Shown in pieces: positions 1 to 10,373 of a stretch of DNA of 16,229 nucleotides (positions are counted from its first letter, which is position 1; each line of letters opens with the position of its first letter). Source of the stretch: a virus. Lineage: Duplodnaviria; Heunggongvirae; Uroviricota; Caudoviricetes. The stretch spans positions 72,207-88,435 of the IMG/VR virus record IMGVR_UViG_3300028800_000066; one strand, 5' to 3'. The position numbers and the translations under genes are program-made. The notes beneath the pieces are model-generated. The model did no database searches, was not told where the DNA came from, and saw only the letters and a list, made by a program, of their open reading frames with translations.

Positions 1-1096
1 TGGTCGATTTAACTTTAAATAATCCGTGATTAGATTATCCAAATCACCATCGAGAATATCTTCTACTGGTCTATATTCTTTTCCGGTGCGTTCATCTACT
101 ACTACTTGTCTAGAATGAACAACGTAAGTTCTGATTTGATGCCCAAAACTCACATCACTTTTTTCACCAGACAAATCTTCAATCTTTTTCTTTTGTTCTG
201 TTTCAGCCAAGTAAGCCAATCTATTTTTAAGTTGCGCCAGAGCCATTTCTTTATTTTCACCCTGACTTCTGCTATCTTCGCTTCTAACTATTATTCCTGT
301 GGGCAAATGTTTTATTCTTACTGCGGTTTCAACTTTGTTTCTGTGTTGACCGCCAGGACCACTTGCTCTATAGATATCAATCTCAATTTCTGATTTATCT
401 ATTTTTATTTCTTCAATGTCTTCAAGAATTGGAATCAAATCAACTCTTGCAAACGATGTTTGTCTTCTCTGATTAGAATCGAAAGGTGAGACTCGCATGA
501 ATCGGTGAACGCCTTTTTCAGACCTCATCAATCCGTAAACAGAATCCCCTTCTATTTTCAAAGTCACTGTTTTAATTCCAGCTTCAATTCCATACTGGAT
601 ATCCAACAGTGTGACTTTGAAACCTTTCTTTTCTGCCCAACGACCATACATTCTTAAAAGAATTTCGGTCCAATCTTGACTTTCAGTTCCACCAGCACCA
701 GATTGTATAGTTAGTATTGCGCCATTAGAATCATATGGTCCAGAAAACATTCTAGCTACTTCTAAATTCTTTAACCTATTATTTAGGTCATATAACCTAG
801 AATCTAGTTCGTTCTCAAGTTCTCTATCTTCGCATGTTTGTAGAATTTCCAAACCAGCTTCTACATCTGACAACACGTTTTTGATAGAACGGCAAACTTC
901 AACAATCTTCTTTGTAGAACTTAACTCTTTTTGTTTCTGCTTGGCAATTCTTGTATCTTGCCAAAAACTTTCGGATAACATTTCATGTTCAATTCGTTTT
1001 ACTGAGATTTCTTTATTCTCAGCGTCAAAGCGACACCAAGCTCTCCATTACACGATTGGAAGCTAGGTTATATTCTTTGACTAGACGATGTTCCAT
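1..1096 (-). CDS. prfB: Peptide chain release factor 2 with programmed +1 frameshift; 3' end runs off the window
   Basis: ATG at 1096 after AGGAG; 23 codons to CTT TGA C (1030-1024); +1 frame reads DAENKEIS...FWQD...SGAGGTESQDW...GVHRFMRVSPFDS (SPF)...ASGPGGQHRNK (GGQ)...GHQIRTYV...ILDGDLD, open to position 1. Absent from the ORF track. Confidence 0.97.
1024..1039 (-). promoter_or_regulatory. prfB frameshift site CTTTGAC with upstream SD-like GGTG
   Basis: Minus strand TTGGTG TCG CTT TGA C; same spacing as E. coli AGGGGG TAT CTT TGA C. Confidence 0.9.
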
Positions 1097-1277: not shown

Positions 1278-1292
1278 ATATATTAACTTTAA

Positions 1293-1432
1293 AATCTTGA
1301 ACAAGTGTTGATATCCGATATGCCTTGCGGCTCCGCTGTTCTACCGTTGAACTAAACCTTCCGAGGAAGGCTAGAGGAATTGAACCTCTATTCGCAGATT
1401 GATAGATAACGAATTATCCTCGGCCCAAGATT
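1293..1432 (-). ncRNA. YrlA-type Y RNA (Ro-binding stem plus permuted tRNA-like domain)
   Basis: AATCTTGGGCCGAGG pairs with ACTTGTTCAAGATT; inside T arm TAGAGG-TTCAATT-CCTCTA, loop-closed acceptor GCCTTCC-TC-GGAAGGT, D arm GTTC-AACGGTA-GAAC. Confidence 0.8.
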
Positions 1433-1438
1433 AATTTT

Positions 1439-1587
1439 AAAATTTGAACAAGTGTTGACATTCGGTATGCCTTTCGGCTACTCCTGCCTCGACCAGTTGG
1501 GCTACCTCTCCGTGTTAGTGGAGAGGGTAGGACTCGAACCTACATCTTAGAGTTGTAAGATAACGAATTATCTTCGGCTCAAATTTT
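1439..1587 (-). ncRNA. YrlA-type Y RNA
   Basis: AAAATTTGAGCCGAAG / ACTTGTTCAAATTTT; T arm GTAGG-TTCGAGT-CCTAC, acceptor CCTCTCC-8nt-GGAGAGG, D arm GCC-CAACTGGTCGA-GGC. Confidence 0.8.
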
Positions 1588-2080
1588 GATGTTGCTTCCT
1601 ACCAGCAAATGTAGTGGTTTGACTATGACAGTTTGGGCAAAGTATTTCTAGATTTTCTATTCTATTGTCTCTACCATTACCATTCTTATGTTCAAGCTGT
1701 AATGATATTGGTTCGTTTTGCCAAACATTTCCAAGCCCACATTTTCTACATTCATTCTTTAAAATTTTTTCTCTTATTAATCTTTTTTTAAGATGCGTTC
1801 TGGAATATCCACTATCTTGAGTTAAAACTTCTTCAAGAGTTTTTGGAGTTATTCCACCACGTAAGTTAAAACGATTGCTATTTCTACCTTGAGGAATATG
1901 ACTGTAATCTATTCCCGATTTATCTAAAACTTGTTTTAGAGTTGCATTATTTCTACCATATTTCACAAAACCAAAATGAATTAAAATTTGTGAAATTGAA
2001 GTTGCTTTAGAAACATAATCTTTTAATTCTTGTTTATCTATCAACCAAAGTTTACTCGTTTTCTTTCTTTCCTTTATCAT
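1568..2080 (-). CDS. HNH endonuclease (putative homing endonuclease)
   Basis: CRKCG...LQLEHKNGNGRDNRIENLEILCPNCHSQT motif. Confidence 0.9.
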   Translation of the reverse strand: MIKERKKTSKLWLIDKQELKDYVSKATSISQILIHFGFVKYGRNNATLKQVLDKSGIDYSHIPQGRNSNRFNLRGGITPKTLEEVLTQDSGYSRTHLKKRLIREKILKNECRKCGLGNVWQNEPISLQLEHKNGNGRDNRIENLEILCPNCHSQTTTFAGRKQHQNLSRR

Positions 2081-8558: not shown

Positions 8559-8942
8559 TTATTTTACGGAAACAACAATTCCCGCATCTGTTAATTTCTT
8601 CTGCAACTCTTCCGCCCTTGCCTTGTCAACATCTTCCGCAACCATCTTGGGAAGACCGTCAACGAAATCTTTTGCTTCTTTCAAACCAATTCCAAGAATT
8701 TCTCTCACTGCTTTAATTGCGCCCATCTTCTTTTCCATAGGCACCGAATCAGCATTCACCATGAAACTATTTTTTGCTGGTCCAGTTGCAAGTGCCGTTC
8801 CATCGGGAGCTACTTCTGTTCTCTGAGTCTGATAAGCCGTAACTGGCTGGCCCAAGGCTCTCTGTAGTGAAGCGACTAAATTTGCCAAATCCATCACAGA
8901 CATTTTATCAATCTCTTGCATTAACTTTGAATTCGTGTTCAT
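8559..8942 (-). CDS. rplL: Ribosomal protein bL12 (L7/L12)
   Basis: IDKMSVMDLANLV N-terminal domain; KKMGAIKAVREILGIGLKEAKDFVDGLPKMVAEDVDKARAEELQKKLTDAG C-terminal domain. Confidence 0.93.
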   Translation of the reverse strand: MNTNSKLMQEIDKMSVMDLANLVASLQRALGQPVTAYQTQRTEVAPDGTALATGPAKNSFMVNADSVPMEKKMGAIKAVREILGIGLKEAKDFVDGLPKMVAEDVDKARAEELQKKLTDAGIVVSVK

Positions 8943-9314: not shown

Positions 9315-9324
9315 CCCTAAAATG

Positions 9325-9351
9325 AAAAAGCCCTCTGGATTTCCAGAGGGC
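9325..9351 (-). terminator. Intrinsic terminator / attenuator
   Basis: GCCCTCTGG-AAAT-CCAGAGGGC followed by TTTTT. Confidence 0.9.
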
Positions 9352-9378
9352 CTGCGCGGAGAGGAATGTGTTTCTTCC

Positions 9379-9522
9379 TTAACTCATACGCGACCCTCTT
9401 GTAACACTATACTGTTGTTCTGGCTTGGCGACTTTGCTAAAATCTGCTGACACAAAGATATCCATCGACTCTACGATAATAGAGTTTGCAAAGTTAATGG
9501 AATGTGATTGCATCGATTTCAT
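9379..9522 (-). CDS. Putative leader peptide (47 aa)
   Basis: MKSMQSHSINFANSIIVESMDIFVSADFSKVAKPEQQYSVTRGSRMS; AAGG upstream; last codons complementary to terminator arm. Confidence 0.65.
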   Translation of the reverse strand: MKSMQSHSINFANSIIVESMDIFVSADFSKVAKPEQQYSVTRGSRMS

Positions 9523-9547
9523 TTTCTGCCTTTTTGCCTTTGTGAAG

Positions 9548-9619
9548 GTTGACTAGAACAAGTAGGTTTTAATCCGACTTTTCAGAGAGAACAGATTAAA
9601 TTCGGCTCTAATCTTTAAC
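9548..9619 (-). ncRNA. Minimal Y RNA-like element in leader
   Basis: GATTAGAGCCGAA / ACTTGTTCTAGTC, inner stem TTTAATCTG/CGGATTAAA, pyrimidine-rich loop TTCTCTCT. Confidence 0.72.
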
Positions 9620-9626
9620 TTCTTGT

Positions 9627-9655
9627 ATTATACCACATGAATGTGGATTTGTCAA
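9627..9655 (-). promoter_or_regulatory. Consensus sigma70 promoter with palindromic spacer
   Basis: TTGACA-17-TATAAT; spacer holds CCACAT-nn-ATGTGG. Confidence 0.88.
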
Positions 9656-9672
9656 GCGTTTTTAAAACTAAA

Positions 9673-9810
9673 TTTTTGAGCAAGTAGCGACATTCGATAT
9701 GCCTTGCGGCTCCGCTGTTCTACCGTTGAACTAAACCTCCCGAGGAAGGCTAGAGGAATTGAACCTCTATTCGCAGATTTAATGATAACGAATTATCATC
9801 GGCTCAAAAA
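9673..9810 (-). ncRNA. YrlA-type Y RNA, near-identical to 1293-1432
   Basis: TTTTTGAGCCGATG / ACTTGCTCAAAAA; 9695-9779 matches 1316-1400 at 84 of 85 nt by manual comparison. Confidence 0.8.
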
Positions 9811-10344: not shown

Positions 10345-10373
10345 ATTATATCACATTGCTCTTGATAAATCAA
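10345..10373 (-). promoter_or_regulatory. sigma70-type promoter for the Y RNA-like array
   Basis: TTGATT-17-TATAAT with TGn; start site would fall at the first element. Confidence 0.75.

Follow-up and report, generated by a model that had tools for sequence, protein, structure and literature searches.

The final 16.2 kb (16,229 nucleotides; hereafter the window) of the 88-kb IMG/VR viral contig IMGVR_UViG_3300028800_000066, a Caudoviricetes record from an uncultured soil phage with a completeness estimate of about half, contains a short transcription unit at 9655–9322 that lies directly ahead of a block of tRNA genes, and a second unit of the same design, with an unrelated open reading frame (ORF), stands before another tRNA block of the contig. 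Both units are probably ribosome-mediated (leader-peptide) attenuators, in which translation of a short leader ORF would sample the codons read by the downstream tRNA block and thereby choose between an antiterminator and a terminator, as suggested by pairing rebuilt in four lineages, by the second unit and by a match between leader codons and tRNA blocks. Every gene of the window is on the minus strand, as are all elements of the unit, whose coordinates are given 5′ to 3′; tRNA genes number 23 in the window and 64 on the whole contig, the latter on a single strand and reading 59 of the 61 sense codons.

The unit opens with promoter P1 (9655–9627), which has TTGACA and TATAAT separated by a 17-nt spacer, with a TG extended −10, and is the sole 12/12 match to the sigma-70 consensus among 46 promoter-like sites in the window; the transcript likely starts near 9620. 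A first-pass annotation made from the letters of this DNA had listed this promoter, a 72-nt minimal Y element, a 47-codon ORF and a strong terminator as parts of a candidate translation-stress attenuator, and all four are present. The transcript made from P1 carries at its 5′ end a YrlB-type, Y-RNA-like hairpin (Y5, 9613–9551), which is itself 63 nt long and reaches about 72 nt only if counted from the start near 9620. It is followed by a Shine–Dalgarno (SD)-like AAGG (9532–9529) six bases upstream of the ATG of the ORF (leader 1, protein P0001; 47 codons plus TAA, 9522–9379) and by an intrinsic terminator (9353–9322, −20.2 kcal/mol) with an 11-bp stem (9353–9328, 7 G–C pairs), a 4-nt loop and a U tract; the window has no other strong terminator on the minus strand. 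A second promoter, P2 (9314–9286; TTGAAA, 17-nt spacer, TATAAT, TG extended −10; 11/12 match), begins 8 nt past the U tract, and tRNA-Met (CAT; 9273–9201) comes next.

At the heart of the unit is a hairpin (9399–9345) that joins the end of leader 1 to the terminator. Its 5′ arm, AGAGGGTCGCG (9399–9389), is in codons 42–45, 8–20 nt before the stop (about 8–18 nt had been estimated), and pairs with a 3′ arm, CGCGCAGGCCCTCT (9358–9345), which includes the outer portion of the terminator 5′ arm; the stop codon itself (9381–9379) is inside the hairpin. Folding of the window sequence with the terminator 3′ arm absent bore out this pairing, which the earlier annotation had claimed: at minimum energy (−26.9 kcal/mol) the RNA folds into a single long hairpin, which takes in the last seven codons and the stop together with the terminator 5′ arm. 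With the 3′ arm present, a fold with the terminator and an inner hairpin is the more stable one (−32.7 kcal/mol). When the upstream 60 nt were subjected to dinucleotide shuffling, 0–2 per 1000 shuffles were as stable as the native sequence. The same pre-terminator fold and shuffle test, applied to the contig's five strongest terminators on the minus strand, detected a long hairpin at only two of them, that at 9353–9328 and one at genome position 61491, and gave no hairpin signal at the other three (z −1.0, +0.8 and −0.7).

Searching with the leader 1 product returned one close homologue among 5.8 billion clustered proteins, on a 13-kb contig (L015), and use of the phage bL12 as anchor led to L016, almost identical to the window, and to the more distant L018, L019 and L020. 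A profile of three leader peptides searched against 1.8 billion representatives then yielded a 45-aa protein, P0123 (E 1.7e-5), which is syntenic, being located between a Y-like cluster and tRNA-Met/bL12 on L023, L024 and L025. The unit thus defined occurs in four lineages (the window with L016; L015; L018 with L019 and L020; L023 with L024 and L025), in each of which the order is P1 (12/12), hairpin, SD, ORF, long hairpin, terminator, P2 (11/12) and tRNA-Met. The hexamers of P1 are identical across the four lineages and those of P2 are retained, with diverged spacers in both. RecA-anchored IMG/VR loci (L004–L011; 40–51% identical) lack the unit; pattern scans of IMG/VR with the conserved Y motif, the terminator flank and the Y5 core gave nothing useful, and a metagenome pattern scan found again the L019 contig and nothing else.

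The terminator is at its position in all lineages with stem letters that differ, and the last codons of the ORF differ along with them, so that both strands of the antiterminator change between lineages: AGAGGGUC-GCG pairs with CGC-A-GGCCCUCU in the window, GAGGGUUUAG with CUAAGCCCUC in L018, and GGGUUUAAG with CUUAAACCC in L023. Until the terminator 3′ arm is available, the antiterminator is the fold of lowest energy in the window, L015, L016, L018 and L023, its energy being −22.6 kcal/mol in L018 and −16.3 kcal/mol in L023 (−15.4 kcal/mol for the L023 hairpin alone). Once the 3′ arm is included, the terminator state is favoured by about 6 kcal/mol in the window and about 3 in L018, and in L023 the antiterminator is favoured by about 2. 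The stop codon of every lineage is in the 5′ half of the hairpin, about 25 nt ahead of the terminator stem, and so a terminating ribosome would melt the hairpin and not cover the terminator. The inner GAG..AGGAA/TTCCT-CTC hairpin that had been described within the antiterminator exists in the window but is absent from two of the four lineages: AGGAA/UUCCU is found only in the window's lineage and in L015, and the others have a short UGAG/CUCA helix. A complementarity of the AUG region to the terminator U tract was discarded, as it is not conserved across lineages.

Leader 1 has the hallmarks of a coding sequence. Its start, frame and stop position are retained in the four lineages; its indels (3 and 6 nt) preserve the reading frame; and pairwise dN/dS is 0.28–0.49 throughout (dS up to 1.2), a sign of purifying selection. 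The core is near-invariant as DNA in the three closer lineages and has many synonymous changes in the fourth. The AGG core of the SD is conserved with a spacing of 6–7 nt (GAGG in L018, AAGGA in L023), and in strength it falls inside the range seen for other genes of the phage. Moreover, the antisense frame, open in three lineages, is broken in L023. Given the SD, the in-frame indels, the dN/dS values, the remote syntenic homologue and the sense frame alone staying open, leader 1 is a coding sequence and is predicted to be translated. A possible helix within the ORF (9448–9513), pairing codons 4–15 with codons 18–25, is weak; most of its pairs survive one-sided changes in L018.

The second terminator with a long hairpin belongs to a unit at genome 61480–61740 (minus strand), its terminator at 61491 being about 10.7 kb before the window start. 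This unit is downstream of the Ro60 gene and a 127-aa ORF and ahead of three tRNA-Asn genes, and it consists of an extended −10 promoter, small 5′ hairpins that have no Y motif, an SD, a 28-codon ORF (leader 2) and the terminator, followed by a perfect promoter and tRNA-Asn. As in the first unit, the ORF end (..CUAAGAGGGUCUAG) pairs with the terminator 5′ arm in a hairpin that holds the ORF end and the stop codon, and the geometry of arm, stop and terminator is the same. The unit is kept in three contigs whose Ro60 is 71–80% identical (L026:5745–6050, L027:5765–6075 and L028:5918–6260), where the ORFs have 29–32 codons and share a common peptide core with synonymous differences, the terminators covary, and tRNA-Asn genes come next on every contig. 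Together with the phage described here, this makes four lineages for the second unit as well; the hairpin reaches significance in three of their sequences (p up to 0.006), and in the remaining one p is 0.06. The switch regions of the two units are alike, AGAGGGU[C/U]UAG ... CCCUC[C/G]GG, yet the two ORFs read them in different frames, which points to a constraint at the RNA level. ARAGORN identified tRNA-Asn genes with 35-nt anticodon-loop inserts at L027:6202–6311 and L028:6283–6399.

The strong terminators divide the tRNA genes of the contig into blocks with non-overlapping amino-acid sets. Block A, from the window terminator (9329) past the window start to the genome 61491 terminator, comprises 37 tRNAs, tRNA-Met being its first gene, for Ala, Asp, Gln, Glu, His, Ile, Lys, Met, Phe, Pro, Ser, Tyr and Val; block B, between the terminators at genome 61491 and 47955, comprises 22 tRNAs for Arg, Asn, Gly, Ile (UAU anticodon), Leu, Thr and Trp. 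Each leader is written largely in the codons of the block that it precedes. In leader 1, 40 of 46 codons are read by block A, compared to a background of 0.65 in the phage's long ORFs (binomial p 6e-4), a score attained by only 0.2% of real ORF pieces of the same length; nine of the 46 are read by block B. Conversely, block B reads 21 of the 27 codons of leader 2 (background 0.35, p 7e-6) and block A six. Codons of the opposite block are under-represented in both leaders, and a two-by-two table of leaders and blocks gives a Fisher p of 1.2e-7. Scored against the blocks of this genome, the leaders of L015, L018 and L023 have 82–91% of their codons on block A and those of L026, L027 and L028 have 64–82% on block B, and in the relatives every tRNA that can be seen past leader 1 is for a block A amino acid. 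Two of the six codons of leader 1 outside block A are Asn codons in the variable N-terminal part, and the other four are in the antiterminator arm, where the pairing dictates the letters. Scoring against all 64 tRNAs was uninformative, since with 59 of the 61 sense codons covered any ORF scores about 98%. A match to one amino acid is weak and was set aside for the block-wide score, with p about 0.05 for Met in leader 1 (three tRNA-Met genes) and 0.03–0.25 for Asn in leader 2; Ser and Leu are more enriched in the leaders than this Met or Asn signal.

From these data we infer leader translation, the direction of the switch and the signal that it senses as follows. RNA polymerase starting at P1 would produce a transcript with the Y-like hairpin first and then the 47-codon leader, whose last seven codons and stop supply the 5′ half of the long hairpin, the terminator 5′ arm being its 3′ half. 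A ribosome that keeps pace and is at the leader end would block the hairpin and let the terminator fold, giving a terminated transcript of about 300 nt that ends near 9322–9326. Were the ribosome absent, or delayed at an earlier codon, the hairpin would form first and hold the terminator arm, and polymerase would read through into block A, adding 37 tRNAs, bL12, the release factor and small ORFs on top of the basal output of P2. With the leader mostly in block A codons, the delay sensed would be a shortage of block A tRNAs, and the second unit would sense block B (Arg, Asn, Gly, Leu, Thr and Trp) in the same manner. The earlier proposal that leader translation selects between antiterminator and terminator thus gains support from the rebuilt pairing, the second unit and the codon match, and the match of each leader to its own block narrows the translation stress invoked there to a probable sampling of codons for one block. 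Among the downstream genes that it listed, bL12 is present, and a class-I release factor domain is located at window 88–420.

Several observations weigh against this interpretation. One is P2, a strong promoter directly behind the terminator, which had been flagged at the outset as a possible bypass and which, at 11/12 with TG, is conserved in all lineages; the second unit is arranged alike. Its conservation implies that, unlike in classical attenuators, the tRNA genes are independent of read-through, which would only supplement a basal level. The contribution of read-through over P2 output could still be large, given that P1 is a perfect promoter. Second, the consensus fold shows no conserved protector helix that partners the antiterminator 5′ arm, and so untranslated transcripts would be read through by default. 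Third, the codon match depends in part on how the blocks are drawn. Their limits were set by our own terminator scan, and when they are drawn from promoter to promoter the p value is 1e-4 for leader 1 and only 0.05 for leader 2; in addition, the L015 leader scored against the 18 tRNAs visible on its own, truncated contig gives 28 of 45 codons versus a background of 0.51 (p 0.08). Finally, both leader peptides are conserved beyond the needs of a mere codon sampler, which suggests that the peptide itself is active, in trans or as a nascent arrest sequence.

P2 and the conserved peptide are also what recommends the most tenable of the alternatives, namely that leader 1 is an ordinary small gene for a functional 47-aa micro-protein that has a promoter to itself and a terminator for insulation, the stop-codon hairpin being a non-regulatory mRNA 3′ structure and the terminator–promoter junction merely separating transcription units. 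The peptide core is indeed well conserved, P2 would render read-through unnecessary, and terminator–promoter junctions recur at genome 61491/61479 and 47955/47960. Such a gene, however, would leave four things unexplained: the lineage-by-lineage rebuilding of the pairing between ORF end and terminator arm, the same design around an unrelated ORF in a different frame, the lack of the hairpin at plain terminators elsewhere in the genome, and leader codons that match their own block and avoid the other. We regard it as unlikely. Perfect TTGACA-17-TATAAT promoters occur along the contig every 5–10 kb, and three, including P2 in this count, come directly after a terminator. Sigma-70-like genes are present in related phages (L023:2495–3385 and L028:234–797), the one in L023 inserted between a DUF1858 gene and the Y cluster, and a phage sigma factor could shift the use of the tandem promoters during infection.

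A different emphasis is suggested by the 5′ end of the transcript. The basal stem of Y5 has a GAG-C-CGA/UUG-UUC motif with a bulged C (C9605), and its upper part is a 9-bp helix under a pyrimidine-rich loop that opens with CUGUUCUC. RNAalifold finds six pairs changed on both sides with pairing retained, the fourth lineage adding more, and the bulged C and the CUGUUCUC loop start are invariant in the four lineages. With helices that covary around a fixed bulge and loop start, Y5 is a real, selected RNA hairpin with a Y-type handle, for which Ro60 binding is putative. Bacterial Y RNAs include YrlA, YrlB and Yrn2, the latter two consisting of a long hairpin with a pyrimidine-rich loop, and a GNCGAAN0-1G motif is found near the Y RNA 5′ end (Chen et al., 2014; PMC4201824); in Thermus phage phiLo, Yrl1 and Yrl2 are found alongside a phage Ro60 (PMC12135203). 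Y5 resembles YrlB and Yrn2 in its hairpin and loop, it adjoins four Y-like modules, and its phage encodes Ro60. It differs from known Y RNAs in leading off an mRNA-like transcript instead of existing as a free small RNA, in being 18 kb from the Ro60 gene versus within 2 kb, and in satisfying the strict motif in one lineage only (GCCGAAG in L018, compared to GCCGAAUU in the window and L015 and ACCGAAG in L023, with an invariant CGAA core); moreover, Y5 (9551–9613) has no match in Rfam. A pairing of the Y5 loop with GAACA of the leader ORF was rejected, not being kept in L023. Y5 may serve in Ro60 binding, in protection of the 5′ end or as a small RNA released separately.

On this basis the product that matters could be the terminated transcript of about 300 nt, a Ro60-binding, Y-type dual-function RNA with a coding tail, like Sinorhizobium rnTrpL/peTrpL, which derives from an attenuator. 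Its 3′ fold would set its stability, the translated RNA keeping the terminator hairpin and the idle RNA refolding to expose its tail to exonucleases. The conserved, covarying hairpin at the transcript start and the phage Ro60 fit this idea, as does L023, where the antiterminator is more stable than the terminator and the released RNA would refold; two reports (PMC7298713, PMC7968998) also describe attenuator RNAs and peptides with roles in trans. Further, contigs from four peat metatranscriptome runs, with spans 9405–9783, 9422–9784, 9416–9560 and 9504–9662, cover Y2, Y4, P1, Y5 and most of the ORF, bridging P1 and not reaching the long hairpin; such contigs place the region in RNA libraries, and ends, strand and termination are not readable from them. 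This account is compatible with attenuation, but it leaves the codon match to the tRNA block unexplained, it invokes a binding of Ro60 that is putative only, and the second unit has the same switch with no Y motif. Taken as the main function, we consider it improbable. We are equally doubtful that Y5 is part of the switch itself, with Ro60, and through it the host PNPase, loading on the leader 5′ end and altering translation, folding or decay. If it were, transcription of the tRNA block would integrate codon supply with the state of Ro60 RNA surveillance. A related, similarly doubtful reading would have the well-conserved leader peptides cause nascent arrest in response to a specific signal. 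However, the feedback from Ro60 that had been suggested to act through the Y hairpin is unsupported, and the second unit indicates that the switch design does not require a Y-like hairpin.

That the ORF is untranslated, forming a structured non-coding tail or a processing site (e.g. for RNase III) that separates the Y RNA cluster from the tRNAs, is very improbable: the long irregular hairpin (roughly 15–20 bp), the possible mid-ORF helix and the near-invariant core DNA of the three closer lineages would suit it, but the fourth lineage retains frame, start and stop amid many synonymous core changes, the SD is conserved, and dN/dS is below 0.5 in all pairs.

We now return to codon-sampling attenuation and its relation to known systems. 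Phage tRNAs have been linked to codon-usage mismatch and to escape from host tRNA-cutting nucleases, and to our knowledge how phages time their tRNA production is largely unexplored. The closest parallels are the leader attenuators of amino-acid operons and of pheST (trpL, hisL, leuL, thrL, pheL, the ilv leaders and pheM). The units described here share with trpL-type attenuators a promoter-proximal short ORF, an intrinsic terminator and an antiterminator that shares a strand with it, a leader enriched in the codons whose decoding would be monitored, and a distance from stop codon to terminator end (about 57 nt) close to that in trp; in both, as proposed here, a ribosome at the leader end would favour termination and a stalled one read-through. 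They differ in that phage tRNA genes, not biosynthetic enzymes, would be controlled; in that the leader samples about a dozen amino acids instead of a run of one; in having three RNA segments versus four, with no protector hairpin, such that the lack of translation would also lead to read-through; and in the strong conserved promoter after the terminator, the conserved peptide and the Y-RNA-like hairpin that caps the 5′ end. A second group of parallels comprises the upstream ORF attenuators that sense translation inhibitors, such as bmrB–bmrCD, vmlR, lmo0919 and ermK. There too a slowed or stalled ribosome disables a terminator and induces genes that restore translation, as would be the case here; drug-bound ribosomes stalling at particular peptide motifs control bacterial resistance genes in those systems, whereas no link to a drug is evident in ours and the codon make-up points to tRNA supply. 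A related drug-sensing case, that of yxjB and tylosin, is described in a further report (PMC6851288). Our full-text search of the published literature turned up no description of phage tRNA genes under leader-peptide attenuation.

The classical logic of attenuation would thus appear to have been reused to gauge the speed of decoding on the codons of a tRNA block and to raise transcription of that block when decoding lags, with two sensors of disjoint codon sets in one genome. If correct, this would amount to a self-correcting supply circuit for a viral translation kit of 64 tRNAs, bL12, a release factor and Ro60 with Y RNAs.

Y5 is the smallest of at least seven modules in the window that share GAG-C-CGA(A/U)G near the 5′ end, pairing with ACUUG-YUC at the 3′ end, and a bulged C. 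Four are in tandem upstream of P1 (9672–10373, minus strand), behind a promoter at 10373–10345; one of these is about 260 nt and one has a permuted tRNA-like domain with a weak YrlA match. In L015 the first three modules of the array are reduced to a remnant, and L023 has an additional 110 nt with two hairpins upstream of P1. Two YrlA-like modules, Ya and Yb, are at the far end of the window (1290–1590), between an HNH gene and tRNA-Gln. In Y4, Ya and Yb, the T arm, stem and D arm follow the permuted order of YrlA; the Rfam YrlA model matches the tRNA-like parts of these neighbours of Y5 weakly (best E 0.005, all below threshold; 0.005 and 0.1 for the Ya/Yb modules), and one Y-like module matches the nematode stem-bulge RNA model with E 0.05.

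As to the phage itself, near-identical DNA is present in rhizosphere and peat metagenomes, and the GenBank phage collection contains no near match to the region. The 64 tRNA genes, at genome 39593–81479, are clustered by amino acid. The Ro60/TROVE gene (567 aa) is on the same strand as Y5, about 18 kb downstream, and RtcB was not found on the contig. In addition to tRNAs, the window encodes RecA, endonuclease VII, the class-I release factor, whose gene region is 1–981, and a bL12 homologue (8559–8942, minus strand). The nearest cellular sequences to this bL12 are about 50% identical and come from the Candidate Phyla Radiation (Uhrbacteria, Moranbacteria) and Elusimicrobia, a weak hint at the origin or host of the phage.

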